Shown here one piece after another: positions 1 through 17,027 of a DNA stretch of 17,027 nt (positions are counted from its first letter, which is position 1; the number at the start of each line of letters is the position of its first letter). The stretch is from a virus: the IMG/VR virus record IMGVR_UViG_3300045988_062861; one strand, given 5' to 3'. Made by a program: the position numbers and the translations under genes. The notes below the pieces were generated by a model. It did not search any database. It saw nothing but the letters and a program-made list of their open reading frames with translations, and was not told where the DNA came from.

Positions 1-80
1 GCCCAGTAAAAAATAGACCCCCCTTGTCAGTTCACCCTTTTTCATAAAAACTACAACAAAATTCTGTGCAAATTGACAGC

Positions 81-109
81 TTGACAAACTGTCAAACGTG
101 TGCTATACT
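81..109 (+). promoter_or_regulatory. ITR promoter P1 (sigma-A consensus, inward-facing)
   Basis: TTGACA (81-86), 17-nt spacer, TGc-TATACT extended -10 (101-109). The -35 is part of a perfect inverted repeat, TTGACAaacTGTCAA (81-95). Confidence 0.7.
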
Positions 110-173
110 ATAGATACAAGGTAAGGAAAGGAGTCCAATACAGGATAACACCTTGAAAGGTGAAAACAAGTAC

Positions 174-202
174 TTGACAAACTACCAAACCTGTGATATC
201 AT
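174..202 (+). promoter_or_regulatory. ITR promoter P2 (sigma-A consensus, inward-facing)
   Basis: TTGACA (174-179), 17-nt spacer, TGa-TATCAT extended -10 (194-202). It lies 93 bp downstream of P1 and is about 80% identical to it over roughly 52 bp, including the shared initial transcribed block acaaggtaaggaaa. Confidence 0.7.
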
Positions 203-243
203 GTAGTTACAAGGTAAGGAAAACAGAATAGGAGGAAATAGTT

Positions 244-333
244 ATGAGAAAAGCCTGTCAGGTAGAAATCAATAAAAAGGCTGACGTAATTTGCGAGGAA
301 ATTTATAACCTCTACTCAGAAAAACAGATATGA
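244..333 (+). CDS. Small ITR ORF, 29 aa (MRKACQVEINKKADVICEEIYNLYSEKQI), hypothetical
   Basis: ATG at 244 preceded by ataGGAGGAaatagtt (SD 8 nt upstream), about 35 nt downstream of P2; TGA at 331-333. It is below the length cutoff of the supplied ORF track. Confidence 0.45.
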   Translation: MRKACQVEINKKADVICEEIYNLYSEKQI

Positions 334-446
334 ATACGATCATTGAAGTTATGAGCTCAGAGCATATCACAGAATTGCAGGGCGGCATGTTAGTATTATA
401 ACTTACATAGCTGTGCTATCGGCATAAACGGGCGGAAAGGAAAAGA

Positions 447-707
447 ATGAAATACAAGATTAAGCTTTACATCGGCGGACACATGTCAATGGTTACCTAT
501 CGCACGGACACTTTGCAAAACGTATTATCGTGCGCCAGAAAGTCAATCACACTGTTTTCAGAGTGCGACGAGAGAGTAAAAATTTGCATTCTTGACAATG
601 ACGGCAACGGTATTATGTCATACATTACTGGAAACAAACCTAAACCAGTATATACGGCTATCGACCATGTAAACAAGGAGCGAAAAACCTACTACACCGG
701 AGCATAG
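447..707 (+). CDS. ITR-encoded 86-aa hypothetical protein (left copy)
   Basis: ORF-track entry with an aaaggaaaag SD-like sequence before the ATG. It is the longest ORF in the ITR and is oriented with P1/P2. I recognise no motif in it. Confidence 0.65.
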   Translation: MKYKIKLYIGGHMSMVTYRTDTLQNVLSCARKSITLFSECDERVKICILDNDGNGIMSYITGNKPKPVYTAIDHVNKERKTYYTGA

Positions 708-729
708 TTCTTTAGAAAGGAGAAAAACT

Positions 730-828
730 TTGAAGATCAAACTTTTACGACTTTTACAGGTCTTAATAATCGTGTCATTGATTTACGATATTGTTGTATT
801 CAACTACACAGCAAATATTTTTGGTTAA
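730..828 (+). CDS. Small hydrophobic ITR ORF, 32 aa (TTG start; MKIKLLRLLQVLIIVSLIYDIVVFNYTANIFG)
   Basis: AAAGGAG at 718-724, then a 5-nt gap, then TTG at 730; TAA at 826-828. It has a basic N-terminus followed by one hydrophobic stretch. Its 3' half and stop lie inside the 95-bp repeat unit. Confidence 0.4.
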   Translation: MKIKLLRLLQVLIIVSLIYDIVVFNYTANIFG

Positions 829-874
829 TGCGGCTCGAGTTAGTCTAAACTAACTCATAACAAAATATTTCAAT
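780..874. repeat. Single copy of the 95-bp ITR repeat unit (left arm)
   Basis: gatttacgatattgttgtattcaactacacagcaaatatttttggttaatgcggctcgagttagtctaaactaactcataacaaaatatttcaat. It contains the hairpin GAGTTAGT-ctaa-ACTAACTC. Confidence 0.9.
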
Positions 875-908
875 TAATTGTGAATAATCACTTGACAAAA
901 ACAGTGTT

Positions 909-940
909 GCCCAGTAAAACATAGACCCCCCTTACCAGTT
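909..940 (+). other. Internal, degenerate copy of the genome terminus (fossil end)
   Basis: gcccagtaaaacatagaccccccttaccagtt matches bases 1-32 (gcccagtaaaaaatagaccccccttgtcagtt) at 29 of 32 positions. It begins at the first base after the ITR. Confidence 0.85.
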
Positions 941-943
941 GTC

Positions 944-986
944 AAGAAAAAAGTGCACCAGCACACCTATAAAAGGCATGCTGGTG
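944..986 (-). terminator. Rho-independent terminator of the late operon
   Basis: On the minus strand, 7 nt after the tail-fibre stop: CACCAGCA (986-979), 15-nt loop, TGCTGGTG (963-956), then cacUUUUUUcuug. Confidence 0.75.
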
Positions 987-992
987 TCATCT

Positions 993-3347
993 TTATACGT
1001 ATCCACAAGCACGGATTTTTTGTGCAAGCATTTTACCTAAAGCGGTGTATCCATTTGCGTTAAGATGTACTGAATCTGAACGTAACGATGAAGGCACTTC
1101 ACCTCTTCTCATTTCATCCGTATCTGTGCTTGTTGGCGTGAGGTTCATTATAGCCATACCGTACTTGTTAAGCATATTTCTTGTGTTAAAATAATGCACA
1201 CCGTATTTGCTAAGCATCTGTGATTCTTCGTCTGACATACTAGAGGCACTTCCAGTACTAAGACCCATTACGATATAGTTGTCGTTAATTTTACTAATCA
1301 TTGAGTCAATGATACTTAACCTCTCGGCTAGATCTGGGCCATTTTGTCCAACAAAAATAACTGTAATTTTACCCGTAATATCGCATCCGGAGAATTTGAC
1401 TGGTGTTTCTGCAAGTAACTTGTCATTATATCCCGTAATAGTGTACTTAGCATTCGGGTCACTTCCGCTTGTTTGTGAAATTGACAAGGTACATTTCACG
1501 CCGTTAATGTATATCGGATTAACGGAATTACTTCCCGTCCCTTGTCTTAATGGATTGCACGTAGTTCCGTAAATATCTTTTAATTCTGACAAAGAATATT
1601 CACTTACTGTGCCTGCCTTAAGAATAAGTGAATTACCACCCTGTCTACAAGCGATTGTGTTAGCATTTTCTCCGCCAACACCACAATTTTTGAAAGAAGT
1701 AATTCCTAATTCAGAAGCACAAACGCTAGGATAATTTGTTCCAGACCCTCCAGCTCCAGCTGTCAAGCTATCTCCCCAAAAGCAAAGGTCAGTTGTATAT
1801 TCAAAGTCATTAACAGTATGCCATAAGTCGTACAGTGTATTATCAGTGAATAGCATGAATTTAATATTAACAGTGTTTGGCACCTGTGAAATGTTATCAA
1901 TTCTTAATATAGCGGTTTTAATAACGTCAGAAGTTGAACCACCTTTAGGAAGTGTCATTTTGTTCACAGAGATTTTGCCAGGTTTAAAATCAATGGTACT
2001 GCCGTAGCATACACTAGCATTATTCCAACTCGCGTTATTCGATAGCCAGAGCGAAAGAGAGTATTTACCAGCAATTCCAGAATCTCTGGCATCAACCAAA
2101 TAATAGACATCTAGTGTATTAGTTTTTGGATTTACCATTGGAACAGTAAAAGTAGACGCAACGCCAACTACATTAGGGTTTGTGCCGCTTTCTCCCTTAT
2201 TATAGGCATCAAAAGAAATAAATGAAGTTCCATTTGCATCAGTTGTAATACCAGTTGAGGAGGAACCCTTATAGTGTACAGATGTACTAAACTGCTTACT
2301 ATAAGCAAAACCATCTTTCAATAGTCTATCACCAGTTACTTTAGAATCTGCCGCCGCACCATTAATTGTAAGCGTATTGTCTATCGCAGGAACACTATTC
2401 CATAAGTTGTACAGTGTATTATCAGTGAATAGCATGAATTTAATATTAACAGTGTTTGGCACCTGTGAAATGTTATCAATTCTTAATATAGCGGTTTTAA
2501 TAACGTCAGAAGTTGAACCACCTTTAGGAAGTGTCATTTTGTTCACAGAGATTTTGCCAGGTTTAAAATCAATGGTACTGCCGTAGCATACACTAGCATT
2601 ATTCCAACTCGCGTTATTCGATAGCCAGAGCGAAAGAGAGTATTTACCAGCAATTCCAGAATCTCTGGCATCAACCAAATAATAGACATCTAGTGTATTA
2701 GTTTTTGGATTTACCATTGGAACAGTAAAAGTAGACGCAACGCCAACTACATTAGGGTTTGTGCCGCTTTCTCCCTTATTATAGGCATCAAAAGAAATAA
2801 ATGAAGTTCCATTTACAGCAGTTGTAATACCACTTGAGGAGGAACCCTTATAGTGTACAGATGTACTAAACTGCTTACTATAAGCAAGACCGTCTTTTAA
2901 CAGTCTTTCACCAACCACTTTAGAATCTGCCGCCGCACCCTTGATGCTCAAACTTGTATCAATTACCGGGTTAGTCGGATTCGTGATATGTTTTGTTAGC
3001 CAGTTATTCACCTCGTCAATTACATCCGGCTTGATGATATTAAGCAAAGCACCTGACTCAGCCATTTCATCAAGTTTCTTGTCAATCTCTGGCTGAACGT
3101 CCAGATTTTCAAAGTACGTATTAACGTACTGCTGTAACTGGACATAAGCCGCATGAAGCTGTACAACATCTGTGTGAAGCGTATCTACATCATGCATTGT
3201 TTTATTGAGATAGTCAACTGTCTTGCAAAGAAGTTCCATATAACTCAGTGAGTCATCATACACAAGTGGCAGTACTTTCTGGCACCAGTAACGAAACGGT
3301 CTTAACTCAGTGTATTCACCCATATCAGGCGTGTAATTAGCATTCAT
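993..3347 (-). CDS. Tail fibre / appendage (receptor-binding) protein with duplicated central module and C-terminal SGNH/GDSL hydrolase domain
   Basis: It is the last gene of the late operon, the gp12 position in phi29. The start is moved to ATG 3347 (MNANYTPD...) because AAGAAAGGAG lies 6 nt upstream. The N-terminal anchor motif RPFRYWCQKVLPLVYDDSLSYMELL is followed by two ~193-aa repeats. SGNH blocks are readable: FWGDSLTAG (I), GVGGEN (II), VGQNGP (III), DSVHLN (V). Confidence 0.8.
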   Translation of the reverse strand: MNANYTPDMGEYTELRPFRYWCQKVLPLVYDDSLSYMELLCKTVDYLNKTMHDVDTLHTDVVQLHAAYVQLQQYVNTYFENLDVQPEIDKKLDEMAESGALLNIIKPDVIDEVNNWLTKHITNPTNPVIDTSLSIKGAAADSKVVGERLLKDGLAYSKQFSTSVHYKGSSSSGITTAVNGTSFISFDAYNKGESGTNPNVVGVASTFTVPMVNPKTNTLDVYYLVDARDSGIAGKYSLSLWLSNNASWNNASVCYGSTIDFKPGKISVNKMTLPKGGSTSDVIKTAILRIDNISQVPNTVNIKFMLFTDNTLYNLWNSVPAIDNTLTINGAAADSKVTGDRLLKDGFAYSKQFSTSVHYKGSSSTGITTDANGTSFISFDAYNKGESGTNPNVVGVASTFTVPMVNPKTNTLDVYYLVDARDSGIAGKYSLSLWLSNNASWNNASVCYGSTIDFKPGKISVNKMTLPKGGSTSDVIKTAILRIDNISQVPNTVNIKFMLFTDNTLYDLWHTVNDFEYTTDLCFWGDSLTAGAGGSGTNYPSVCASELGITSFKNCGVGGENANTIACRQGGNSLILKAGTVSEYSLSELKDIYGTTCNPLRQGTGSNSVNPIYINGVKCTLSISQTSGSDPNAKYTITGYNDKLLAETPVKFSGCDITGKITVIFVGQNGPDLAERLSIIDSMISKINDNYIVMGLSTGSASSMSDEESQMLSKYGVHYFNTRNMLNKYGMAIMNLTPTSTDTDEMRRGEVPSSLRSDSVHLNANGYTALGKMLAQKIRACGYV
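1821..2978. repeat. Intragenic tandem duplication, 2 x 579 bp (193 codons) inside the tail-fibre gene
   Basis: 1821-2399 versus 2400-2978. 1831-2235 is identical to 2410-2814 (405 bp by eye). The remainder of each copy is only partly similar and is clearly diverged beyond 2361/2940. Confidence 0.9.
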
Positions 3348-3361
3348 AGTATACTCCTTTC

Positions 3362-4150
3362 TTACCATAACAGGAAGAACAGATCTTTCAGTTCATCCAC
3401 AATCATTTGATCAATGTTCAGCATACTTTCTCGATACTCAATCAGCATTTTAGAATAAGATGTTCCGCTTCTCTTACCCTGTACGTGCTCCGAGTATTCT
3501 TTCAGTGAACTATAATTTCCAGTACTTTCAGAATCAGACGTTCCTGCATTAACCTGTGTAGCAGTGTTATCAAGCTTCTGAGTACCAGTATCAGCAGAAC
3601 TACCTTTATCTGTTACATTTCTAGCGTCAGTTAGATATGCACCAGTTTCAACACCAGTCAACGCACCTTGAGGTGTATCAGAAAATTTATTCCACTGATT
3701 GTTTTCGTCTGTGTGTTTCAGATTGTCAGTTCTTAGAGAACTAAGGTTATCAGTTCTCGTGTTGCTATCTTCGCCATGAAGTGTTGAACTGTTATTACCC
3801 TCGTCTTTCAGATTATGAGTAGTGTTTAAGTCAACATCATACAGAGGATTGAACTCAAGTGTTGCGCTTTTATATAACTGATTGTAGTATGGCATAATCA
3901 TGTTCATACGTTCAGTTAGCCACATCTTCCATATACCAACCGTTTCAGATGCAATCTCACGGAGGTAAAAGTGTTTCAGAATCTTGCAACACAGGACTTT
4001 TCGATACGTTTCATCATAGATAGGAAAATCACCGAAAATTTTGTTCCAGCTTTTTTCAATGATCGCATTAATGTTAGATGCTCCTTGACTCTCTGAATAT
4101 CCTGCTTCTGTTTCGCAGATGAATCTTACTTCGGTGGTGTATTTACTCAT
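3362..4150 (-). CDS. Lower collar protein (phi29 gp11 position)
   Basis: It sits directly downstream of the portal gene, as in phi29. The start is moved to ATG 4150 (MSKYTTEV...), which overlaps the portal stop (gATGAGTAA) with GGTGAG upstream. The call rests on synteny and size only. Confidence 0.6.
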   Translation of the reverse strand: MSKYTTEVRFICETEAGYSESQGASNINAIIEKSWNKIFGDFPIYDETYRKVLCCKILKHFYLREIASETVGIWKMWLTERMNMIMPYYNQLYKSATLEFNPLYDVDLNTTHNLKDEGNNSSTLHGEDSNTRTDNLSSLRTDNLKHTDENNQWNKFSDTPQGALTGVETGAYLTDARNVTDKGSSADTGTQKLDNTATQVNAGTSDSESTGNYSSLKEYSEHVQGKRSGTSYSKMLIEYRESMLNIDQMIVDELKDLFFLLW

Positions 4151-5039
4151 CAGTCTCACCATCCTCTCCGGTGTTATTCACAGAGTTATTCACATCTTCT
4201 ACTTCTGGAATCTGATAGTCCTGTCGATATTCAACCGTTATGTTTGTGCCAAACATCTGATTAATTTTATTTGCGGCAGTACGGCGGCTTTCCAGTCTGG
4301 AATATCTAGACGCTACAACTCCACCCTGATTTCGATTTACTTCATCCGTAATCATACGTTCTTTTTTCTGCGTGTTGATATTGCTGATACCTAGTCTTGT
4401 CAACGCTTCGTTCCAATACTGTGTTTTCAGTGCATAGATTTTATCAGCAACGAATGGCGCATTGGTAGTAACAGCTCTAAGCGCAGTTGGGTCAAGATCA
4501 TTGTCACCAAAAATTACAGGTGAATTACCGTCATACTCTTTGTACACGTTAAGCAAAGAAAGACGCTGTTTTTCTGTAGCGCGCACCAGAATTGGTGTTT
4601 TCTGTGCGTTTGCATTTACGTCAATGATTCGATCGAGATTGTACAGTCGTTTGGCATAAATCATGGAGTCGGCTACAGATGGTGTACGTAAAAAGTTATT
4701 GTAGATAATAACGCTGTCAGATTCTGATAAAGTTTTGTTATAGCCATTGTAACGTGAGTAAGCTGTTCTTCTAGTCGGGTATCCATACACATCAAAGTTA
4801 CCTGCTGGCAGACAAGATAAACATAACTGTGGTTGATTTTCCAGTTCTTCATCTTTGAACCAAACAGCCACCCCGGTTAAAAACAACTGCATTTCAAGAT
4901 AACGTACATCTATACTGTCTGGTACGTTTTGCCACTCAAACATGGAAACAGCTAGTTCAGACAGTACACGTAGGTACTGTCCATATGTAGCTGTATTACC
5001 TAAGAGTGACTCATCAAAATTTGTTTTTCTTTTCCCCAT
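4143..5039 (-). CDS. Portal / upper collar connector protein (phi29 gp10-like)
   Basis: The translation shows NANAQKTPILVRATEKQRLSLLNVYKEYDGNSPVIFG and KKERMITDEV, closely resembling phi29 gp10 [37 protein letters not shown] and KKERMVTDEV (recalled). It has an acidic C-terminus. The start is at ATG 5039 (AGGAG 8 nt upstream) rather than the track's TTG 5045. Confidence 0.88.
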   Translation of the reverse strand: MGKRKTNFDESLLGNTATYGQYLRVLSELAVSMFEWQNVPDSIDVRYLEMQLFLTGVAVWFKDEELENQPQLCLSCLPAGNFDVYGYPTRRTAYSRYNGYNKTLSESDSVIIYNNFLRTPSVADSMIYAKRLYNLDRIIDVNANAQKTPILVRATEKQRLSLLNVYKEYDGNSPVIFGDNDLDPTALRAVTTNAPFVADKIYALKTQYWNEALTRLGISNINTQKKERMITDEVNRNQGGVVASRYSRLESRRTAANKINQMFGTNITVEYRQDYQIPEVEDVNNSVNNTGEDGETDE

Positions 5040-5050
5040 TGTCAAGTCTC

Positions 5051-6625
5051 CTAGTTTGTTGGTCTGTTATCAAGTGAATAGTCACCGATCTCGTCACCGT
5101 TCCTCCACCATGTAATACCCTTATTGAATATGCTTACAATCTCTCTTGCATCATCGGATGGCAATGAACCAGTGAGAACACAAGAAACTGTTTTGATGAA
5201 AGTCCAATGAGTTCTAGCGTGTAAGTTAGGTGTCATCAGAGCATTCTGCGCATATCCAAACATGGTAAAGAAGTCATCAATCAGTTTAGCAAACGGTGCG
5301 CGAACTGTCTGGTGTTCAAAAGTAAATTGAACTTTACCCATCTGAGCGTTAAGAGAATCACATTCGATCTGTCCATGCGTCTGAGGTGGCGTATTTTCTA
5401 AATCCTGTTTCTTGCCCATAATAGCATAAGCTTGATTGAACAGATTTTGCTCACCCATAATTGCAGTTGTTGCGGCACTGTTTGAATTTCCATTCATAGC
5501 AGATGTTCCTACAGAAGCAACGTTTGTCATTGCACTTGCAAGCATGGCAGAGGTAACACTTCCTTTGTTCTGCGCCCACCACGCTTTCCATGCATCACCA
5601 GACCACGCAATGGTTGGAAAGTTTGAGAGTACAAGTCCACGGTCATAGTTTTTATCCATACCCATATAATTCATTGGATATAGTGTGACAGTTGGAGTTG
5701 TCACGATTGCGCCAGCCAGTTTAAAATTTACAAGCGAGTGAGATTCCTCAGAGTATTTGAACTGCTCCCATCTGTACTCGGCACGACTGCCTGCATTGTT
5801 TGATAGTACAAGTTTGCAGAATGGATAAGAAAAGAGTTTGCGATTCTTTACGTCATGTCCATCTATTTGAGTTAGATTGTTGTAAACAGGAACGGTTTTT
5901 TCGTGCAACCCACCTGCTGAGCTTTGAGAAGAACCAGCTTCGTCAAGAAACGATGGATATTGAAACGCTGATACGAGAGCATCTTCTTTTCCATTGTCAA
6001 TCCAATTCTTAATTTCCGTTGTTATTGATGCAGAATCTAAAGCACGAATGCCAGACTCAAGACCGAGTCCGCAAAAGATTTTGCCACGTGTTTTCGGGTC
6101 GGCCACAGTTCCATCAGCTCGCTGTGTATAATAAAGACCGATTGACATTGAGTTTAAGTCAACCACAGTCTTTTTCTCGACTGTGTAATCACCTAAATCG
6201 AGATTTTCTGGAACGAGATTTTCAAAATATCCATCACTCTCACTATGCTGTCTCTCAACAAAGCACTGTCCGAGTGTAAAGTCAAACAGCCAAGTCTGCA
6301 ATACATCAATCTGATATGTTACAATAGATGTAATATTGTTCACATACTCGATGGAAGTAATAAATGCATAGAACCATTTGTTTCCATAAGCTGTGTTTTG
6401 GAACATCATGTAGTTACAATCGTAGATTTCATCAGCCAACACACCTACTTTCATGGTATTACGTGAGTGACGCTGATAGGTGTTCTTTGTGAAAGCACGT
6501 TTCTGTTTACTGATAAAGTAGTTGGACTGCTTTGCTTCGGAGTCAAAGTAGATCGTGTGATCGTAGGACGGCTCAAGCGGAACGTTGTGTAATAAACGTA
6601 TAGTTGTGTTTGGAGAAATATACAT
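5051..6625 (-). CDS. Tail knob / distal tail tube protein (phi29 gp9-like)
   Basis: YMMFQNTAYGNKWFYAFITSIEYVNNITSIVTYQIDVLQTWLFD matches phi29 gp9 YIMFQNADYGNKWFYAFVTELEFKN...FEIDVLQTWMFD (recalled). The start is at ATG 6625 (MYISPNTT; AAGGAG 6 nt upstream) rather than the track's TTG 6643. Confidence 0.88.
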   Translation of the reverse strand: MYISPNTTIRLLHNVPLEPSYDHTIYFDSEAKQSNYFISKQKRAFTKNTYQRHSRNTMKVGVLADEIYDCNYMMFQNTAYGNKWFYAFITSIEYVNNITSIVTYQIDVLQTWLFDFTLGQCFVERQHSESDGYFENLVPENLDLGDYTVEKKTVVDLNSMSIGLYYTQRADGTVADPKTRGKIFCGLGLESGIRALDSASITTEIKNWIDNGKEDALVSAFQYPSFLDEAGSSQSSAGGLHEKTVPVYNNLTQIDGHDVKNRKLFSYPFCKLVLSNNAGSRAEYRWEQFKYSEESHSLVNFKLAGAIVTTPTVTLYPMNYMGMDKNYDRGLVLSNFPTIAWSGDAWKAWWAQNKGSVTSAMLASAMTNVASVGTSAMNGNSNSAATTAIMGEQNLFNQAYAIMGKKQDLENTPPQTHGQIECDSLNAQMGKVQFTFEHQTVRAPFAKLIDDFFTMFGYAQNALMTPNLHARTHWTFIKTVSCVLTGSLPSDDAREIVSIFNKGITWWRNGDEIGDYSLDNRPTN

Positions 6626-6644
6626 AAACTGCTCCTTTTTCAAG

Positions 6645-6675
6645 ACGCTACCTATCTATTACAGATAGGTAGCGT
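6645..6675 (-). terminator. 13-bp-stem hairpin immediately after the capsid gene (partial terminator or mRNA stabiliser)
   Basis: acGCTACCTATCT-attac-AGATAGGTAGCgt lies between the capsid stop (6686) and the tail knob start. The trailing sequence gucuug is only weakly U-rich, so read-through is expected. Confidence 0.45.
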
Positions 6676-6685
6676 ATAATTAAAA

Positions 6686-8098
6686 TTATGCTTTCTTATT
6701 CAGTACAACTGTAAAACCAACCGCTGAATCAGGAGCAACTGGCGTTTTCGCTTCATATTCTGTGCCATTAATAACCATCGTTAGGTTAACTGCCTTAGAT
6801 GCCGATGACGCTGGAATCATGATTGCACCATACGGAAGAACGGCGATACCATCTGTTGTAGCCTGTTTGGTCTGCTTAAACTGATAAGTACCCGGTACGA
6901 GAGTAGCATTATCATCCTGTACACTGAGTGTAAATACCGTTGCAACGTCGCTGGTATCTTTTCCAGTAACTTCCACGGTGTAAGATGTTTTCGGTGCAAT
7001 GGTAGCCGCGTCGGTGACAAATACAATCGCATTGGAGAACGGTGAACTGGAAATTGTTTTCCAAACGTGATAGAAATAATTCCAGTACAACCCTGCGGCA
7101 GAATACTGCTCGGTGAATTTTGCATTGTTATCGTAAACCTGGAACCAGTCTACATCAAGCAGAACAGCCTTTACATTTTTCATGTGAGCCAGTTCATCTG
7201 CTGTTACTTCTTCCAGACCGTCAGAGTTATCACGAATAACATCGAACCGTTCATTGTCAAATGATGTCCAATCGTCGATCAGATGTACTGCTGACGTGAA
7301 CGTTGCTTTGTCCATGTTGAATGCGGCGGCAAGTACGTTAACGTCGTACTTCGCATTAAACCAACTGTCCATAAAGATAACCTGATTTTCACGCGGCGTA
7401 GATGTACGCACACCAGATGCATTGTACTTTGTTTTCATGAATGTAAGATCATTCGAAGCACCACGGAACATTTCACCAGCTTCTTTCAGATCAGTTCCAG
7501 CACCGATAGATATTGGACACATCTTGCCGTGAGATACAGCCTTAATGAGCAGATATTTGAAAAGAAGAAACTCGTCATACTCAGCCGCCTTGTAAACAGA
7601 TTCCACAATTTTAGCAACTAAATCCTGTACGCCAGATTCTGCTAAGAAAGCAAGACGTAAATCCTCGTCCTGTATTGTTACCGGATACATAACGCGCCAG
7701 TTCATTGCATGGAATGCCGATTTTACATCCGGAAGTGTACGCTTAAATTCACGAGCCGCACCCTTTTCCGGTGTGTAATCAACAACCTTTGCAATCTGCA
7801 CAAAGATTTCTTCGACGGTTTCGCCAAATTCAAGATATCCTTTTTTCAGTGATGCATACGGGTTGTTGAATGTAGCACTTTTTGTCATAACAAGTGCAAT
7901 ACGGTTTACGATGGAGTTAATGAACTGATTGGAGAAAGCTGGTGTCCCACAAATTACTTCTCCTACTTTTGGAATGTCGCTTGCTTTTGCGACAACTGGT
8001 ACAGACTGCTGATAATCATAGGGTGCATTCTGACGAATAGCATTCATGATGTCAAGCGTTGATGCCTGTAATGTTGATTTTGCAATTCTTCTAGGCAT
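6686..8098 (-). CDS. Major capsid protein (phi29 gp8-like) with C-terminal Ig-like extension
   Basis: LDIMNAIRQN..., FINSIVNRIALV, LAAAFNMDKATF and GLYWNYFYHVWKTISSSPFSNAIVFV parallel phi29 gp8 YDIVNAIRNS, FITSLVDRIGLV, LAKAFNMNRTDF and [26 protein letters not shown] (recalled). AGGAGG lies 8 nt upstream of the ATG. Confidence 0.9.
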   Translation of the reverse strand: MPRRIAKSTLQASTLDIMNAIRQNAPYDYQQSVPVVAKASDIPKVGEVICGTPAFSNQFINSIVNRIALVMTKSATFNNPYASLKKGYLEFGETVEEIFVQIAKVVDYTPEKGAAREFKRTLPDVKSAFHAMNWRVMYPVTIQDEDLRLAFLAESGVQDLVAKIVESVYKAAEYDEFLLFKYLLIKAVSHGKMCPISIGAGTDLKEAGEMFRGASNDLTFMKTKYNASGVRTSTPRENQVIFMDSWFNAKYDVNVLAAAFNMDKATFTSAVHLIDDWTSFDNERFDVIRDNSDGLEEVTADELAHMKNVKAVLLDVDWFQVYDNNAKFTEQYSAAGLYWNYFYHVWKTISSSPFSNAIVFVTDAATIAPKTSYTVEVTGKDTSDVATVFTLSVQDDNATLVPGTYQFKQTKQATTDGIAVLPYGAIMIPASSASKAVNLTMVINGTEYEAKTPVAPDSAVGFTVVLNKKA

Positions 8099-8110
8099 TT
8101 CTAAATCCTC

Positions 8111-8398
8111 CTATTCTGTCTTAAACAGACTTTCATATGTTAATGATTTCGGCTCTGGTTCGTCACCGCCTTGATCTTGTTCCGGGTCAGCCTTACCGCT
8201 AAAGCGGTCAGTGTAACGTTTCCGCCATGCTTTGTCGTTTTCCTCATACTTTGTTTTCCAATCTTCACCAGACCTTTCATTCAGATCGGTTAACGTATCG
8301 GAAACATCTTCCAGCATAGCAAGCTGTGTATCGTCTGGTGACTCACCAAAAGAAGCTTTCAGTTCGTCAATAATTTCCTGTCTTGTTCTTACTGCCAT
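8111..8398 (-). CDS. Scaffolding protein (phi29 gp7 position), 95 aa
   Basis: A small, acidic, helix-prone protein directly upstream of the capsid gene. The start is at ATG 8398 (MAVRTRQEII...), with AAGGAGAA 6 nt upstream. The track's 8437 start is a TTG with no SD. Confidence 0.6.
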   Translation of the reverse strand: MAVRTRQEIIDELKASFGESPDDTQLAMLEDVSDTLTDLNERSGEDWKTKYEENDKAWRKRYTDRFSGKADPEQDQGGDEPEPKSLTYESLFKTE

Positions 8399-8409
8399 AA
8401 TTGTTCTCC

Positions 8410-9465
8410 TTAAATGAAATATCTGCACATCATCCAAACAGGCAACTTCTTTTTCTTTTTTATCGGCGGCAACGGTGGAACGTCACCGCCAGACAAGAAA
8501 AGGAAAATCAACAAAGCGTTGTTTAAATTGGCTTCACTTCCGAAAGAAAGAAGTGTGGAACTAGGGTGGTCGTAGGATTCTTCGTTGTACCATGCACCTG
8601 GTTTATCCGAAGCGTGGGTGTTAAAATACTCAAGATATGTGTTTGCGCATGAAATACGATAGGAAAGGGAGGAATCGCTGATACCCTCCCACCCACGCAT
8701 GAACGCTTCGGTCAACATGGAAAGATCGGTACGGGTGCTTGACAAGAATTCCGATAGGTTGTCGAAGTTTGCGGCAACACCGGACGGATACCAGATATTT
8801 TCGTGAATGAAATACGCAAGCTGACCGTTTCCGTCGTTTGAAGCGTATCCATTTTCCTGTAACCAGTTAAGCAACTGTGTGCGTCTGTTCGTCTCGGAGT
8901 TGTCGGTCCATTGTCCTAATCCAAAACCTTGCTTATATCCTAGTTCCCACTGTCCGGGGTTCAGTGTACTTTCCTGCATCCAGTTACCGCAGATTGCCGC
9001 GGCAACATAAGCAGATGCACCAACGCCGGAACCACCAGACCCATACCGAAAGCAACGCGACCAGTTGCTCGGTGATGATTCCGAGGTGTTGATACTAACT
9101 TGCTGTTCGAGTGGCGCATCATCTGTGTGCGCACCCATAGTTCTTCGTCCTTGATAGACCATCTCGGTATGACCGGAGCGCCAGAGAATATCACCCGGTT
9201 TCCAGACATTCGAAACGGGAACTTCGGTAAATCCCATTGATAGCAGAACGGAAATCATATCGGAAGTAGTGAACGGGTGTTTGGAACCGTAAGTCGCAAT
9301 GACGGGGAAAGCACCAGCTAAAAGCGCGTACCAGATAAACGAGGAACAGTCATAGTAGGTGATTCCATTTACGGTTTGCTGTTCCCGGTAAGTCTGTGAA
9401 TAACCGACGTTTGATCGGTTACAGGTAGCAACTGCCCAGGACCATGAAGTGTTGATGTTAGCCAC
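8410..9465 (-). CDS. Virion-associated peptidoglycan hydrolase (gp13-like): N-terminal Amidase_5/NlpC-P60-like cysteine peptidase plus C-terminal phage-tail-lysozyme-like domain
   Basis: GTG start at 9465, with AAGAGGGA 7 nt upstream, overlapping the endolysin stop. The N-terminus carries GYSQ...YYDCSSF...PGDILWRSGHTEMV (Cys/His peptidase signature). The C-terminus carries AAICGNWMQESTLNPGQWE...GFGLGQWT, typical of the phage tail lysozyme family. Confidence 0.75.
   Translation of the reverse strand: MANINTSWSWAVATCNRSNVGYSQTYREQQTVNGITYYDCSSFIWYALLAGAFPVIATYGSKHPFTTSDMISVLLSMGFTEVPVSNVWKPGDILWRSGHTEMVYQGRRTMGAHTDDAPLEQQVSINTSESSPSNWSRCFRYGSGGSGVGASAYVAAAICGNWMQESTLNPGQWELGYKQGFGLGQWTDNSETNRRTQLLNWLQENGYASNDGNGQLAYFIHENIWYPSGVAANFDNLSEFLSSTRTDLSMLTEAFMRGWEGISDSSLSYRISCANTYLEYFNTHASDKPGAWYNEESYDHPSSTLLSFGSEANLNNALLIFLFLSGGDVPPLPPIKKKKKLPVWMMCRYFI
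8455..8461 (-). promoter_or_regulatory. Candidate -1 programmed frameshift heptamer A_AAA_AAG
   Basis: The minus strand reads ccg atA AAA AAG aaa aag aag in the hydrolase frame, so the heptamer is in the correct phase. The -1 frame downstream (gaa aaa gaa gtt gcc tgt ttg gat gat gtg cag ata ttt cat tta agg aga aca att ATG gca...) has no stop and is the scaffold frame. Confidence 0.35.
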
Positions 9466-10138
9466 GAGTTAATCCCTCTTTAGCGATATATCCTGTATAC
9501 GTGCAACCGTCTACAACTGCTTTAACAAGATACCATTCACCAGTGTAATATCCATAGTTTCTAACGCCTGTTCCCGTTGGTAATGTTAAAATAACATGTT
9601 TGTTCATGCCAGCACCAACACGCAAATTATAACGATCATTGGTGTGATACGCTCCGGCAATCTCCCGGTTAAAACTACGTGCTGATTCTGGTTTGATTGG
9701 CGATGATATATTATTCTGAGGTTCATCATTTCCTTTGTAACGATAGTGAACAAGATTACTGTACGGAAGACAGTAATAAGATCGAACGCATATTTCTCTT
9801 CCGGTCTGATCACCTGTCTCGCCATCAATTCCACCGTTCTCCGACTGGCTGGCGTGAACAATATGCGAAGCGTCAGTTGACATCGTAACGTGATGACCAG
9901 CGGCAAGATGAATGTCTCCACGTTTCCATGGAGCATTGCACTTTTTAAACCCACACTTGATAAGCTGTGATTCTAAGTTGCGCGTTGTACTGTATTTACT
10001 GACGGCAAAGCCTGTCTTGCTTAACGCTGTTCCAATAAATGAACTACAGTCATAGTCTGGTCCGTTTCTGTTTACTTGTGAATAGCCATGGCTATCATCG
10101 GCGGCAATCTGTTCCGCCCAGGATACTGTTGTTTCAAT
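9458..10138 (-). CDS. Endolysin: Amidase_5-type cysteine amidase/peptidase plus C-terminal SH3-like wall-binding domain; proposed ATT start
   Basis: The track starts the ORF at ATG 9883. The same frame is open back to a TAA at 10153-10151 and encodes the catalytic N-terminus: IETTVSWAEQIAADDSHGYSQVNRNGPDYDCSSF...NAPWKRGDIHLAAGHHVTMSTDASHIVHAS. This resembles the Pal/Dp-1 Amidase_5 domain (recalled). There is no ATG, GTG, TTG or CTG in that extension. ATT at 10138-10136 overlaps the holin TGA. The C-terminal ~60 aa (YHTNDRYNLRVGAGMN...GEWYLVKA) look SH3-like. Confidence 0.7.
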   Translation of the reverse strand: METTVSWAEQIAADDSHGYSQVNRNGPDYDCSSFIGTALSKTGFAVSKYSTTRNLESQLIKCGFKKCNAPWKRGDIHLAAGHHVTMSTDASHIVHASQSENGGIDGETGDQTGREICVRSYYCLPYSNLVHYRYKGNDEPQNNISSPIKPESARSFNREIAGAYHTNDRYNLRVGAGMNKHVILTLPTGTGVRNYGYYTGEWYLVKAVVDGCTYTGYIAKEGLTRG

Positions 10139-10337
10139 CTTTGGCGTTGTTTACACCTCCTAAATGCACACACAGGTTATTAATTGCCAGCGTATTTGCT
10201 TCGACGCTTTTACAAAGTTCTTCCATCTCTGCTTTGTGAGCTTCTTTTTCTCTAATCATATACCAGAAAAGAGCACCACAACACACGATTGGAAAACCGA
10301 GCGACCCGATAAGCTGTGTGACGGTTGTTACATCCAT
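10134..10337 (-). CDS. Holin, BhlA/UviB-like (67 aa)
   Basis: One N-terminal TM segment (VTQLIGSLGFPIVCCGALFWYMI) is followed by a charged helical tail. It lies directly upstream of the lysin. The start is at ATG 10337 (AAGAGAGG 8 nt upstream) rather than the track's GTG 10346. Confidence 0.65.
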   Translation of the reverse strand: MDVTTVTQLIGSLGFPIVCCGALFWYMIREKEAHKAEMEELCKSVEANTLAINNLCVHLGGVNNAKD

Positions 10338-10372
10338 TTTCTTCACCTCTCTTTCGTAATTTAATCATAACA

Positions 10373-10401
10373 CTTAGGCTTGATTATGTCAAGCTTTTAT
10401 G
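10373..10401 (-). promoter_or_regulatory. Late-operon promoter (sigma-A consensus)
   Basis: On the minus strand: TTGACA (10401-10396), 17-nt spacer, TGt-TATGAT (-10 at 10378-10373), about 30 nt upstream of the holin ATG. Confidence 0.7.
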
Positions 10402-10417
10402 TTATAATATTTTTAGA
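10389..10417 (+). promoter_or_regulatory. Promoter of the packaging ATPase gene
   Basis: TTGATT (10389-94), 17-nt spacer, TGt-TATAAT (-10 at 10412-17), about 45 nt upstream of ATG 10464. Its spacer contains the -35 of the divergent late promoter. Confidence 0.7.
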
Positions 10418-10463
10418 ATCAAAAAGTTCATGATTCAAATAATTGGAAAGGAAGAATGTTTGA

Positions 10464-11501: not shown

Positions 11502-11623
11502 TTATGGTATCTACCATTGTTTCATATCATGATAGGTATGGACGCCCAGTTGAAACTATACTGCCTTACTTATTTACTGCTAGGCAAGCAGGCATGATGC
11601 GTTCATTGGTTAAAGATATATGT

Positions 11624-11972: not shown

Positions 11973-13958
11973 TCACCTCATTTTATAGGTTGTTTCACAG
12001 AGCAACACGCCGCCGGGAATACGCTTTGGCATCAGCTTTCCCGGAACAGTCAATCCATAAGTAAAATCAGTTAAGTCTCTGTGAATAGGCTTGTTAGTTT
12101 CATCGAATAAGAAATATTTCTCTTCCTCTTTCCAGTCATCTGGTTTTCCTTGCTTATCTTCCATACTTCTGATGAACAGGTCTTTACACTTTCTAGGCAT
12201 GCCAGCACATTTTACATTATAATAAGGTTCAACTTTCTCACCAACCCATTCGTTGTCTTTCAACTCAAGATCTTCTTCGACTACGTGTTCAATGTATGTT
12301 TTCTGCCGTGTGAAAATAGCACTATCCCATTTACTTTCCAGTTTCCAGCAACAAAATGCTGTGTTGTGTACTTTAATTCCCTGTACTTTTTCTGGTTTCA
12401 AATTGCAATGAATGCTATCTGTATCGGCATAGATAAAACCTGCCTTGCCTACACCATGATAGTTCGCTTGTGCCGCTCTGATCGTAAAGTTACGCGCATA
12501 ACTTGTGATTGCAGAACCGATCGGTATGTAGCCGGGTTGTTTGTCATTCGCTTCTACGCTACGAAATCCTATTGAGTTGTCATCTTTCAGATATGCTACT
12601 TTGAATGAACTGTCCGTGCTACTTGCGAACTTACCGTACAGATTGTTCAAGAAAAGCTTTGCTAACTGACGCTTTGCTCCCTTACTGTTCATTTTAATCT
12701 CCTTGTACTTGTCAATATAGCCGTCAAACAAACCGATCTTTTTCTCAAAATAACAACCGTCTAATATTTGAAAATCCTCTACGTCATAGTGTTCTAAGAA
12801 AAGATTGTAATCTGTCATTGTTAAGGTCAACTCTACAGTTGTTGGAACTTTCTTCATGTTACCATCATAGATGTATCTATGGTATTGACCATTGAGGTAT
12901 ACATCTGAGGTTTCCAGTGCTTCTGTTCCCCTGTACAGAGATGAACCTTTGATCTGGATGAAAGGTAACTTATCTTTCTTGAGATAGAAACGTGTTCGAA
13001 TACGAACGAAGAAATACTTTTCCTGCACATCGTCTGGAATGCCGTTTTGAAAGAATACAGGTAGTCCTACAGGGTAATAGTTACCAGACTCAGAGTGCAT
13101 CATGGAGGGGTACAATGAATTTACGTCAGCAGTTACGCCATTACCATACGGAATACCCGTCTTGCCTTTTACAGCATAACACCAGCCGCCTTTGTATGAC
13201 TTTTTAACATACTCGCCAGCATTAGAAACGCCATATATACTCTTGTCGATCTTGAATTCGTAGAGGTTTGGAAACATCTGTTCCCACTCATATACCGTTT
13301 CATGCTCAAATATGTTTTTATATTCTTCCATGCAACACGAGCCGATCGTAAGCTTGTTATGTCCCTCTGCGAACATGAACTCGATTGCTTCTTTTATGAC
13401 AAGAACGTCGTTCTTAATATACTCGATCTCTTCCGCTGTGATTTCACAACCAGCATATCGCAAGCCTTTGTATTCCATTTCAAGCTTACGGTGCTTTAAC
13501 TTAAACGATTCACCTATTGTCTTGACAGAAAATGGTAACAGCTTTAGTGAGTCACGTAACTCAATGAACTTTCCATTGCCCAATCGTATGGTGATTGAAT
13601 ACCACTGACCTTTGTCACTGATAGAATACTTGAAAGATCGAAAGTTCATATCTTTCTCTTTTAACCAACTTACGCTGTACTGTTCTGACGTATTGACGAT
13701 GAAAGCTTGTTGATAACCTTGTTTGATTAAGTAATCTATCCAGAAAGAACCATCAAATTTTAAGTTATGAAAATAGCAGATTATGTTACACTTGTAGGAT
13801 GCAAGATGTTTAAGACAATCTCCGATGCTATGCGACAAGGTGACTGTCTCTGTGTTTAACTCTACTGTAGCCGCCGCCCACACTTCGGTATCAGTTTGAC
13901 CAGCGTATACGGTCGTTTCAAAATCTCCTACAAAGTAGCGATATTTCCGTTTTCTCAA
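11973..13958 (-). CDS. Protein-primed family-B DNA polymerase (phi29 gp2-like)
   Basis: Motifs readable in the translation: ExoI FVGDFETT, ExoII FHNLKFDGSF, ExoIII YIKNDVLVIKEA, motif A DVNSLYPSMM, motif B KLFLNNLYGKFA, motif C YADTDSIH and KxY RQKTYIE. The only start upstream of ExoI is TTG 13958, 2 nt after the terminal-protein stop, which implies translational coupling. Confidence 0.97.
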   Translation of the reverse strand: MRKRKYRYFVGDFETTVYAGQTDTEVWAAATVELNTETVTLSHSIGDCLKHLASYKCNIICYFHNLKFDGSFWIDYLIKQGYQQAFIVNTSEQYSVSWLKEKDMNFRSFKYSISDKGQWYSITIRLGNGKFIELRDSLKLLPFSVKTIGESFKLKHRKLEMEYKGLRYAGCEITAEEIEYIKNDVLVIKEAIEFMFAEGHNKLTIGSCCMEEYKNIFEHETVYEWEQMFPNLYEFKIDKSIYGVSNAGEYVKKSYKGGWCYAVKGKTGIPYGNGVTADVNSLYPSMMHSESGNYYPVGLPVFFQNGIPDDVQEKYFFVRIRTRFYLKKDKLPFIQIKGSSLYRGTEALETSDVYLNGQYHRYIYDGNMKKVPTTVELTLTMTDYNLFLEHYDVEDFQILDGCYFEKKIGLFDGYIDKYKEIKMNSKGAKRQLAKLFLNNLYGKFASSTDSSFKVAYLKDDNSIGFRSVEANDKQPGYIPIGSAITSYARNFTIRAAQANYHGVGKAGFIYADTDSIHCNLKPEKVQGIKVHNTAFCCWKLESKWDSAIFTRQKTYIEHVVEEDLELKDNEWVGEKVEPYYNVKCAGMPRKCKDLFIRSMEDKQGKPDDWKEEEKYFLFDETNKPIHRDLTDFTYGLTVPGKLMPKRIPGGVLLCETTYKMR

Positions 13959-13960: not shown

Positions 13961-14818
13961 TTAATAGTCACTGTCCATCATATCGTCTAAATCTTCGAAA
14001 GAACGCATAGCAGATTCAGACAATGCAAAACCAGAAATATTACTTAAAAGAGCAACTATATGCTGAGCGGATGCCCACACTAAATTAGCGTCGGAATCGT
14101 AGTGAATAACGCCTAGCCATTTCTGAATATCATCCCATTGTTTTGACAACTCTTGACCGACTTTGTTCTTTCCAACTTCTGTAACGTTAAAAGATTGCTG
14201 TAGTTCTTTCGGCAACGTTTTTATTATCCCATACCCTATATCTGCCACAACTTCATCTAACGTCGCTAAAATTTCATCCAGAGCTCTGTTAGCTGTTTCA
14301 GCTACATTCGGACTTCTTCGTACTCTTTTACCTGTAACAGAAGTGTAATAATATACATCCATGGTAGAAATTATTTCTTTTAACTTGTCAACTAAATCGT
14401 TGAAAGCTTCTGCATAAGCCAGCACTGGCTCGTCTGTTACAGGTGTTTTAGTTCCGTCTGTGCTAGTCCAGAACCTCTGTTCTGCTTCTTTCTTTTCTTT
14501 TCTTGTTTTAGCTGCTGCCTTTGCTCTTAACTGACGCTCAAGTTTTAAACCCTCTTTACCAGAAACGATTTCACCAAATGTAGCTTCGCCACCATAAGAA
14601 GCTTTTGAATACAACTCCTCTTTCGTGAGTTTTTTCAACTTTCGAATACTGGCTTCGGTTTTACGCTTCGGAATAGATGGTACAATAGATTCTGGAAAGC
14701 TATATCCACGCTTTTCCGCTCTTCTAACGAATGACTTAACACGATTTCGCTCTTTTGCGTATGCCTTGTTGATAGCTTGCTGTTTTGCTGTTTGTCCCTT
14801 TTTTGTTTTCTTTGCCAC
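13961..14818 (-). CDS. Terminal protein (replication primer), putative
   Basis: 285 aa, immediately upstream of and coupled to the polymerase gene, as phi29 gene 3 is to gene 2. It has a very basic N-terminal third and an acidic C-terminus. GTG start with GAGAGG 8 nt upstream. The call rests on position, size and composition. Confidence 0.6.
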   Translation of the reverse strand: MAKKTKKGQTAKQQAINKAYAKERNRVKSFVRRAEKRGYSFPESIVPSIPKRKTEASIRKLKKLTKEELYSKASYGGEATFGEIVSGKEGLKLERQLRAKAAAKTRKEKKEAEQRFWTSTDGTKTPVTDEPVLAYAEAFNDLVDKLKEIISTMDVYYYTSVTGKRVRRSPNVAETANRALDEILATLDEVVADIGYGIIKTLPKELQQSFNVTEVGKNKVGQELSKQWDDIQKWLGVIHYDSDANLVWASAQHIVALLSNISGFALSESAMRSFEDLDDMMDSDY

Positions 14819-15822: not shown

Positions 15823-15851
15823 ATTATACCTCTTAACACTGTTTTTGTCAA
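15823..15851 (-). promoter_or_regulatory. Early-operon promoter (perfect TTGACA-17-TATAAT)
   Basis: On the minus strand: TTGACA (15851-15846), 17-nt spacer, TATAAT (15828-15823). The near-palindrome GTGAATAATCAC (15863-15852) abuts the -35. The ITR boundary (15835) lies inside the spacer. Confidence 0.75.
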
Positions 15852-15868
15852 GTGATTATTCACAATTA

Positions 15869-16248
15869 ATTGAAATATTTTGTTATGAGTTAGTTTAGAC
15901 TAACTCGAGCCGCATTAACCAAAAATATTTGCTGTGTAGTTGAATACAACAATATCGTAAATCATTGAAATATTTTGTTATGAGTTAGTTTAGACTAACT
16001 CGAGCCGCATTAACCAAAAATATTTGCTGTGTAGTTGAATACAACAATATCGTAAATCATTGAAATATTTTGTTATGAGTTAGTTTAGACTAACTCGAGC
16101 CGCATTAACCAAAAATATTTGCTGTGTAGTTGAATACAACAATATCGTAAATCATTGAAATATTTTGTTATGAGTTAGTTTAGACTAACTCGAGCCGCAT
16201 TAACCAAAAATATTTGCTGTGTAGTTGAATACAACAATATCGTAAATC
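15869..16248. repeat. Tandem array of four head-to-tail 95-bp units (right arm)
   Basis: Units at 15869-15963, 15964-16058, 16059-16153 and 16154-16248 appear identical by eye. Each carries the 8-bp-stem palindrome gagttagt-ttag-actaactc. Confidence 0.92.
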
Positions 16249-16298
16249 AATGACACGATTATTAAGACCTGTAAAAGTCGTAAAAGTTTGATCTTCAA
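16200..16298 (-). CDS. Right-arm copy of the 32-aa hydrophobic ORF
   Basis: Mirror of 730-828. It ends in the outermost (4th) copy of the 95-bp array, so the product is the same. Confidence 0.4.
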   Translation of the reverse strand: MKIKLLRLLQVLIIVSLIYDIVVFNYTANIFG

Positions 16299-16320
16299 AG
16301 TTTTTCTCCTTTCTAAAGAA

Positions 16321-16581
16321 CTATGCTCCGGTGTAGTAGGTTTTTCGCTCCTTGTTTACATGGTCGATAGCCGTATATACTGGTTTAGGTTTGTTTCCAG
16401 TAATGTATGACATAATACCGTTGCCGTCATTGTCAAGAATGCAAATTTTTACTCTCTCGTCGCACTCTGAAAACAGTGTGATTGACTTTCTGGCGCACGA
16501 TAATACGTTTTGCAAAGTGTCCGTGCGATAGGTAACCATTGACATGTGTCCGCCGATGTAAAGCTTAATCTTGTATTTCAT
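16321..16581 (-). CDS. ITR-encoded 86-aa hypothetical protein (right copy, identical)
   Basis: The ORF-track translation is identical to that of 447-707. Confidence 0.65.
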   Translation of the reverse strand: MKYKIKLYIGGHMSMVTYRTDTLQNVLSCARKSITLFSECDERVKICILDNDGNGIMSYITGNKPKPVYTAIDHVNKERKTYYTGA

Positions 16582-16694
16582 TCTTTTCCTTTCCGCCCGT
16601 TTATGCCGATAGCACAGCTATGTAAGTTATAATACTAACATGCCGCCCTGCAATTCTGTGATATGCTCTGAGCTCATAACTTCAATGATCGTAT

Positions 16695-16784
16695 TCATAT
16701 CTGTTTTTCTGAGTAGAGGTTATAAATTTCCTCGCAAATTACGTCAGCCTTTTTATTGATTTCTACCTGACAGGCTTTTCTCAT
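16695..16784 (-). CDS. Right-arm copy of the 29-aa ITR ORF
   Basis: Mirror of 244-333; cat at 16782-84 is the reverse complement of ATG. Confidence 0.45.
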   Translation of the reverse strand: MRKACQVEINKKADVICEEIYNLYSEKQI

Positions 16785-16825
16785 AACTATTTCCTCCTAT
16801 TCTGTTTTCCTTACCTTGTAACTAC

Positions 16826-16854
16826 ATGATATCACAGGTTTGGTAGTTTGTCAA
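16826..16854 (-). promoter_or_regulatory. ITR promoter P2, right-arm copy
   Basis: Mirror image of 174-202. Confidence 0.7.
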
Positions 16855-16918
16855 GTACTTGTTTTCACCTTTCAAGGTGTTATCCTGTATTGGACTCCTT
16901 TCCTTACCTTGTATCTAT

Positions 16919-16947
16919 AGTATAGCACACGTTTGACAGTTTGTCAA
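16919..16947 (-). promoter_or_regulatory. ITR promoter P1, right-arm copy
   Basis: Mirror image of 81-109 (coordinate = 17028 - x). agtata at 16919-24 is the reverse complement of TATACT. Confidence 0.7.
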
Positions 16948-17027
16948 GCTGTCAATTTGCACAGAATTTTGTTGTAGTTTTTATGAAAAAGGGTGAACTG
17001 ACAAGGGGGGTCTATTTTTTACTGGGC

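Follow-up and report, generated by a model that had tools for sequence, protein, structure and literature searches.

The stretch of DNA analysed here (17,027 bp; hereafter the window) comprises, as judged from its sequence, all or nearly all of the genome of a phi29-like protein-primed gut podovirus. It encodes a protein-priming family B DNA polymerase (PF03175, 1.8e-43; phrog_1907, 2.4e-135) that is 34-36% identical to the phi29 and Nf polymerases, and a structural and packaging module with the connector gp10, major capsid protein, tail knob gp9, lower collar and gp16 ATPase (matching, as listed, PF05352, PF25622, PF16838 + PF20934, phrog_3225 and PF05894). Most genes are carried by the minus strand, and the gp16 packaging ATPase lies on the plus strand. 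The major capsid protein (Phi29 MCP, PF25622) belongs to the late operon, together with tail knob gp9, connector gp10, the lower collar and a 791-aa tail protein. The early operon, also on the minus strand, holds a p6-like dsDNA-binding protein of 93 aa (15360-15641; phrog_6370, 2.7e-5), a 117-aa SSB-like ORF (14889-15242) with a weak Phi29_Phage_SSB match in the collection annotation, a putative terminal protein of 285 aa (13961..14818) and the adjoining protein-primed family B polymerase (11973..13958). The putative terminal protein is assigned by synteny only, its ORF lying immediately before the polymerase gene, and it gave zero sequence matches in Pfam, PHROG or PDB. We found no pRNA gene among Rfam families at gathering score within the whole window; a divergent pRNA could escape such a search.

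When the whole window was compared with the INPHARED phages by megablast, there were zero nucleotide-level matches, and relatives in that collection are found at the protein level only. The closest deposited relatives are unannotated human-faecal scaffolds and the Clostridium symbiosum phages CS229P1-3. The latter are the nearest cultured relatives, with a polymerase ~60% identical in CS229P1, and their deposited ends are not ITRs. The 'complete genome' of CS229P1 (OP172772.1) starts, and nearly ends, with the GC-rich sequence GTTAACGCTCCGCTCCGCGCCGCCTTCGGCCGCGCTCCGC..., unlike the AT-rich phage DNA, and these ends may be non-phage or adapter-like sequence, or unresolved ends.

Terminal regions of the window

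The last gene of the late operon encodes a tail or appendage protein (993..3368, minus strand) and contains an internal 579-nt repeat, in which positions 1795-2094 and 2374-2673 are 96% identical at a spacing of 579 nt. The 791-aa ORF has no record as such; a 784-aa version from an internal start is on record. When the window was compared to the MEGAHIT contig k127_25306, 25 of the 28 differences fell in the repeat region of this gene, which suggests either recombination between the repeats or repeat mixing in assembly. Directly downstream of the ORF, which ends at 993, lies the intrinsic terminator of the late (structural) operon (944..986, minus strand), with a hairpin at 956-986 and a U-run at 946-955. 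The hairpin (986..956) has a dG of -25.5 kcal/mol (z = -5.8), and none of 200 shuffles was as stable. It is thus real, as was assumed by the preliminary description of this DNA, which had placed a late-operon terminator just inside a buried genome end.

At the other end of the genome, an early promoter with the perfect consensus TTGACA-17-TATAAT (15823..15851, minus strand) is predicted to drive the operon of the p6-like, SSB-like, putative terminal protein and polymerase genes. The left arm of the inverted terminal repeat (ITR) carries two tandem near-consensus promoters pointing inward (81-109 and 174-202, plus strand) and small inward early ORFs, for instance at 447-707 (86 aa). These promoters sit in two tandem 50-nt repeats located 93 nt apart (80-129 and 173-222) and mirrored at 16806-16948. 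Each repeat consists of a near-consensus extended -10 promoter (TTGACA-17-TATACT in one, TTGACA-17-TATCAT in the other) and then ACAAGGTAAGGAAA. The same 50-nt repeat is also present at the truncated right ends of relatives. The repeats have no Rfam pRNA match, and their promoters could, from the sequence pattern, drive a small RNA.

The left ITR arm (1..874, plus strand, for its exact part) is the reverse complement of 16154-17027, and this right arm (16154..17027, minus strand) is the native place of the sequence in all relatives. An ITR is expected of a protein-primed genome, and over this part the arms are exact inverted copies. Further in, the left arm has one copy (780-874) of a 95-nt unit that occurs in the right arm as four identical tandem copies (15869..16248, minus strand), so that the arms differ by 285 nt (three extra copies). 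Each unit holds a hairpin with a 7-bp stem (GAGTTAG..CTAACTC). Past this indel the arms agree again: the innermost 34 nt of the left arm (875..908, plus strand) are the reverse complement of the innermost 34 nt of the right arm (15835..15868, minus strand), the donor copy, and end with the -35 box TTGACA (892-897) of the duplicated early promoter. The arms then diverge at 908|909. Given the tandem-repeat difference, a '908-bp ITR' is true of the left arm only; the right arm measures 1193 bp and the two are not collinear. A single 95-nt unit is found in the right arm of the relatives L129-L135, and at least two units were found in the right arm in three independent assemblies. The four-unit array is either an expansion that followed the ITR event or a copy number beyond short-read resolution. 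All the evidence presented here comes from short-read assemblies. We had considered the count of one against four units as proof that the arms are physically distinct, and dropped this argument because short reads cannot resolve four identical units.

A buried terminus and its junction

Immediately inside the left arm, at 909..940 (plus strand), lies a fossil left terminus (GCCCAGTAAAACATAGACCCCCCTTACCAGTT) that is identical at 29 of 32 positions to both present termini, namely 1-32 and the reverse complement of 16996-17027. This match had been pointed out in the preliminary description and is confirmed here: 0 of 200 dinucleotide-preserving shuffles produced a copy with three or fewer mismatches. 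A third 'copy' of the terminus at 11544-11575 shows only 66% identity and is attributed to chance. The copy had also been described as starting where ITR identity ends. The divergence at 908/909 agrees with this, but exact identity between the arms already stops at 874, where the 285-nt indel follows. The fossil bears the left-end signature ..CTTACCAGTTG followed by the terminator, and both present termini bear ..CTTGTCAGTTC, the signature of the right ends of the closest relatives. One substitution, A to C at position 920, is unique to the fossil; among the other 16 aligned rows (termini and fossils), 14 have A and none has C. The duplicated -35 box at 892-897 is now paired with TAAAAC (915-920) of the fossil, a poor -10. 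An outward promoter-like site (TTGACA-16-TATGTT; 918-945, minus strand) also overlaps the fossil. It would have pointed off the genome end in the ancestor and now reads antisense into the left ITR arm; it is probably due to chance.

The identity of the physical terminus bears on how this junction should be read. As judged from the ends of related contigs, the real terminus is most likely TTTGCCCAG, not GCCCAG, and the window probably lacks 3 nt at each end. In IMG/VR record 3300045988_008466, an Illumina adapter is followed by TTTGCCCAGTT, i.e., adapter|TTTGCCCAG. The contig of a close relative (049624) ends with TTTGCCCAGTAAAAAATAAAC, and in the wider clade at least 10 contig ends start with TTTGCCCC. 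The TTT reiteration is thus present at the ends of relatives, and the window itself starts at G; an exact search for the window's terminus in IMG/VR yielded zero matches, and no record of the window itself turned up in the IMG/VR and JGI metagenome collections searched. Sliding-back initiation needs a terminal reiteration such as TTT (PMC6266182; PMC4974454). With the TT at 907-908, the fossil reads TTGCCCAG..., which lacks one T relative to the clade terminus TTTGCCC. Since the terminus is most likely TTTGCCCAG, the fossil does not confirm the first base of the window as the physical end, and the earlier view that it independently validates gcccag as the real terminal sequence probably does not hold.

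The junction reads …CAGTG-TT-GCCCAG. In all relatives the right arm reads …CAGTGTT|AAGAGG, which makes the TT native to that arm; at the junction it can be assigned to either partner. If the true terminus carries TTT, then the GTT|GCCCAG join represents a 2-nt TT microhomology rather than a clean blunt joint, and at least the final T is missing from the fossil. The corresponding breakpoint of the right arm (15834|15835) lies in the spacer between the -35 and -10 boxes of the early promoter (15851..15823).

Illumina TruSeq or Nextera adapter sequence was left at several public contig ends, in several cases directly abutting the phage terminus. The records concerned are 3300045988_047558 and 3300045988_008466 (right ends), OJJT01000536.1 (positions 1-136) and the left ends of L021, L041, L051 and L070. 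Such remnants help to locate physical DNA ends, yet they contaminate the records. The left end of 3300045988_078762 (L048) begins with its own 22 outermost terminal nucleotides in reverse-complemented form (GTTTGAATTTTAATGGGGCAAA), after which the sequence picks up again within the terminus. This short fold-back is probably a library or assembly artefact, and such artefacts exist in this dataset.

Short-ITR relatives and recurrence of the architecture

We scanned IMG/VR with the portal protein and the polymerase, which gave about 115 loci, and rebuilt 12 close relatives end to end. The preliminary description had proposed to look for relatives whose left end starts at the homologue of position 909, and such relatives were found three times: 034823, 053285 and OJJT01000536.1 each have a left end that starts at about this homologue and runs straight into the homologous terminator. 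The first of them, 3300045988_034823 (16,533 bp, ~88% identical), starts with CCAGTTAAAAATAGACCCCCCTTACCAGTTGTCAAGAAAAAAGTACACCAGC, the homologue of window position 911 onwards. The second, 3300045988_053285 (17,020 bp), starts with GTAAAAAATAGACCCCCCTTACCAGTTG on the left and ends with GTAAAAAATAGACCCCCCTTGTCAGTTC on the right; its short ITR is perfect over ~20 nt and imperfect over ~30 nt, and its left and right ends differ by ACCAGTTG / GTCAGTTC, the same difference as between the fossil and the termini of the window. In the third, OJJT01000536.1 (ENA, ~93% identical, from a metagenome pattern scan), a Nextera adapter …AGATGTGTATAAGAGACAG abuts GTAAAAAATAAACCCCCCTTACCAGTTGTCAAG, which indicates a physical fragment end at the 909 homologue. 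Two other matches of the metagenome pattern search (L123 and L125) are unrelated GC-rich contigs and were discarded. Pre-duplication sister genomes of the window therefore exist. In these short-ITR genomes the terminator lies a few nucleotides from the physical genome end. All relatives tested, the short-ITR ones included, have the homologue of window 1-908 at their right end. The Clostridium podoviruses phiCPV4, phiZP2 and phiCP7R, which are of the same phage type and come from a gut/Clostridia context, have ITRs of 25-30 bp (PMC3362512) that resemble the inferred ancestral state. Unlike the window, neither these phages nor CS229P1-3 have a long ITR.

The architecture of the window is present, with different breakpoints, in four other lineages of this gut clade. 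The closest is 056329 (17,010 bp, 94% identical), which has an exact ITR of 981 nt, a fossil at 973-1001 and a 9-nt microhomology (GTAAAAAAT). Its arm reaches ~150 nt further into the right end than that of the window, and its fossil retains less of the old terminus. Since the window keeps more of the old terminus and 056329 more of the right arm, neither can be derived from the other. The remaining three lineages (066587, 106331 and 137506) belong to a more distant part of the clade, with portal proteins 62-67% identical. In 066587 the exact ITR spans 139 nt and the fossil, a second terminus copy TGTGCCCCTTTTAAATCAAAC, starts at position 140 and is followed by the late terminator; the breakpoint 139|140 falls 5 nt after TTGACA and no microhomology is visible. 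The exact ITR of 106331 spans at least 776 nt, its outer part being truncated, and the junction AGTATT|GCCCCTTTAATG (AGTATT|GCCCC) presents a TT microhomology; the right arm continues as AGTATT|TAAATT. Finally, 137506 has a left arm of ~1015 nt, with a p6-like gene within the duplicated arm, and a junction ATATG|CCCCTTTAAG (ATATG|CCCC) with a TG microhomology. Its right arm is absent from the contig and the ITR is therefore unconfirmed; we matched its left arm to the right arm of 106331 instead, which it follows through the breakpoint of 106331 before joining 67 nt further in.

All five cases add early-end sequence to the late end, and no mirrored case was found at ~36 right ends or in 12 rebuilt genomes, although these are small numbers. 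The junctions have 2-9 nt of microhomology, or none visible in 066587, and four of the fossils have lost 1, 1, 2 and 8 terminal nucleotides. In two of the five cases, the breakpoint lies inside the spacer of a sigma-70-type promoter, 12 nt after TTGACA in the window and 5 nt after it in 066587. It is possible that bound RNA polymerase or an open complex might favour a template switch at such sites; with n = 5, this is not significant.

Some other loci carry terminus-like sequences away from their ends. Those found at ~500 nt in L056 and L075 show 4 mismatches to the terminus and fall within the tail gene; we attribute them to chance. In 3300045988_022126 (L026) and 3300045988_038793 (L029), whose right ends are missing, ~55 nt of unrelated sequence are found outside a perfect terminus motif. 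Since k-mer overhangs typically have this length, the two contigs may contain further buried termini for which the outer ITR arm was collapsed by the assembler.

Origin of the long repeat

These results lead us to favour, with good confidence, the interpretation that the window is a phi29-like genome whose ITR has grown from ~30 bp to ~900 bp through the joining of its right end, copied in inverted orientation, onto the left one. The preliminary description had proposed an ancestor spanning 909-17027 that acquired an inverted right-end copy. The relatives support this scenario, which needs to be amended in that the arms are not collinear and the junction has a TT microhomology. The enzymatic route would be a template switch or a fold-back and, by analogy with the phi29 precedent only, the viral polymerase would catalyse the event during strand displacement. 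The ancestor would have run from ~907/909 to 17027, with a ~30-bp imperfect ITR and the late-operon terminator almost at its left end. A strand with its 3' end at the left terminus, either a nascent strand from the right end or a displaced parental strand after exonucleolytic nibbling, would anneal over 0-9 nt to the complementary strand, in single-stranded form, at an internal site of the right end. In the window, a single such event would have begun with a TT pairing at 15835/15836, within the main early promoter's spacer. Extension over the right-terminal ~0.9-1.2 kb of the complementary (displaced) strand, up to its protein-capped 5' end, would produce long self-complementary ends and a valid origin at the new 3' end. 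One further protein-primed round would then yield a long-ITR duplex of which both ends carry the origin of the right end, the ITR now measuring ~900 bp. Buried at 909-940 and without its last nucleotide, the old left terminus would no longer be an end and would presumably be non-functional. Because the switch would occur at the very end of the template, nothing would be lost and the whole genome would be retained. The losses of 1, 1, 2 and 8 nt fit switching or trimming just before the capped end, and the two of five acceptor sites located in promoter spacers are suggestive only.

The main rival explanation is an artefact. The packaged genome would then start at ~909 with a ~30-bp ITR, and a chimeric junction would have led the assembler into the right arm and on to the right terminus; the chimera could stem from ligation or template switching during library preparation or from bulk-metagenome DNA containing a rare by-product of replication. 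Chimeras made by a polymerase typically show microhomology at their junctions, too. An artefact would likewise yield arms that are 100% identical, and beyond the true end there is nothing to compete with a chimeric read. Moreover, the adapter remnants and the 22-nt fold-back at contig ends indicate that the termini of public assemblies are not clean, and an internal ITR resulting from mis-assembly has been reported for the PZA record (PMC6266182). Evidence from other assemblies of the same phage speaks against this rival. In the SPAdes assembly ERZ1314563, the unique contigs have coverages of 2.78 and 2.79 (agreeing to 0.1%), and the ITR contig (L134; 872 nt, 100% identical to window 3-874) has a coverage of 5.10. 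This ratio of 1.83 fits roughly two arm copies per genome with some end loss, and not a rare chimera, which would give ~1x; the estimate comes from one assembly at low depth (2.8x vs 5.1x k-mer coverage) that does not include the junction. The junction itself was assembled by two different pipelines: the MEGAHIT contig k127_25306 (L126, ERR414271) spans window 89-16016 with 28 differences, and a scaffold in ERZ28596397 (L136) spans window 854-9347. Both derive from the data of Li et al. 2014 and may share a single sample with each other and with the window, so that the junction may be documented in one biological sample only. In k127_25306, the left arm is organised as flank, single unit, 34 nt and fossil, and a unit-unit junction is present in the right arm only. 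The left arm thus has one 95-nt unit against at least two in the right arm, and the single left-arm unit differs by one SNP from the innermost right-arm unit. The C at 920 of the fossil, absent from every other aligned row, also argues against an artefact, as does the polarity of the five cases, since chimeras should arise at both ends. Overall, an artefact now looks unlikely.

Growth by end duplication could also be accepted and its product interpreted differently. The fossil might still be functional, acting as an embedded origin or repair template that interconverts long- and short-ITR genomes in a mixed population, as in adenovirus, for which genomes with embedded ITRs reportedly resolve to normal ends (work attributed to Haj-Ahmad and Graham, 1986). 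The fossil is nearly intact (29/32), and the complement of the right terminus, when part of a displaced strand, could conceivably anneal to it. We nevertheless regard a functional fossil as very improbable: the 1.83x coverage places the duplication in most genomes of that sample, the terminal T is missing, the fossil carries a C found at that position in no other aligned row, and phi29-type initiation is said to require an origin at a DNA end (Garcia and colleagues, 1984). Alternatively, the polarity could be reversed, such that the long ITR is ancestral and the short-ITR relatives lost the left arm, an internal terminus-like sequence becoming the end. Both states are present in data that lack a rooted phylogeny. 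A terminus copy is, however, found exactly at the inner boundary of the ITR in five genomes whose boundaries differ (908, 981, 139, at least 776 and ~1015 nt), which is expected only if each was made by joining onto an existing end. The window and 056329 are, moreover, not derivable from each other, and the related Clostridium podoviruses have 25-30-bp ITRs (PMC3362512). We give a reversed polarity hardly any credence.

Returning to growth by end duplication, we lean towards viewing it as a recurrent, ongoing and polar process in the whole clade of human-gut phi29-like phages, with at least five independent events. Within that interpretation, each event may have added 0.14-1 kb and trimmed the fossil by 1-8 nt, with at most 9 nt of microhomology. 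If true, these genomes constitute a natural time series of the birth of long ITRs in protein-primed replicons, and would point to a template switch immediately ahead of the protein-capped last nucleotide, made by the polymerase or by the nibbled 3' end of the displaced strand.

Events of this kind are known from laboratory systems. The DNA polymerase of phi29 is said to switch template in vitro, generating palindromic TP-DNA and inverted end-duplications (Esteban and colleagues, 1997), and subgenomic molecules reportedly arise in vivo from such switching (Murthy and colleagues, 1998). As in the window, one end is inverted and duplicated by a strand-displacing protein-primed polymerase, leaving a functional origin at both ends. 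The phi29 products are, however, short defective palindromes that represent laboratory or infection by-products, whereas a switch of the type inferred for the window takes place 1-8 nt from the template end, keeps the whole genome and has given rise to a dominant natural genotype. In adenovirus, mutants that carry a duplicate of one end at the opposite end, or that have embedded ITRs, have reportedly been isolated as well (by Brusca and Chinnadurai in 1983 and by Haj-Ahmad and Graham in 1986). These also involve a protein-primed linear genome in which an inverted terminal segment on the opposite end lengthens the ITR, and in which internal ITR copies are tolerated; unlike the window, they are laboratory isolates of a eukaryotic virus and are explained by panhandle repair. 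We know of no description of a natural series of independent events with fossil termini, and our literature search for natural fossil termini returned nothing relevant. Natural, repeated and legible cases in phi29-like phages thus appear to be new to the literature searched.

Other small protein-primed podoviruses have ITRs of hundreds of base pairs that, like those of the window, contain promoters according to their record annotations, such as Lactococcus phage asccphi28 (577 bp) and Streptococcus phage Cp-1 (236 bp). We searched both genomes for a copy of the terminal sequence and found none at or near the inner boundary of the ITR, and none elsewhere. The history of their ITRs is erased, whereas in the window the old end remains legible, and short-ITR sister genomes exist.

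End duplication doubles the dose of the early promoters and of the small early genes, and the duplicated promoters now aim inward at the late terminator, resulting in convergent transcription into it. Both effects may be under selection. Our results further indicate that the ends of uncultured linear phage genomes, and the practice of calling a genome complete from its ITR, need care: an internal copy of the terminus is a mark either of recent ITR expansion or of mis-assembly. How identical ITRs of hundreds of base pairs originate and are maintained is a long-standing question, in phi29-like phages as well as in tectiviruses, adenoviruses, linear plasmids and polintons, and the answers so far have come mainly from laboratory artefacts, namely phi29 palindromes evolved in vitro and adenovirus mutants. 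The natural genomes described here keep the state before the event (the sisters), the state after it, and the scar in the form of the old terminus and the microhomology at the junction. With several independent events, the mechanism becomes testable on real sequence.
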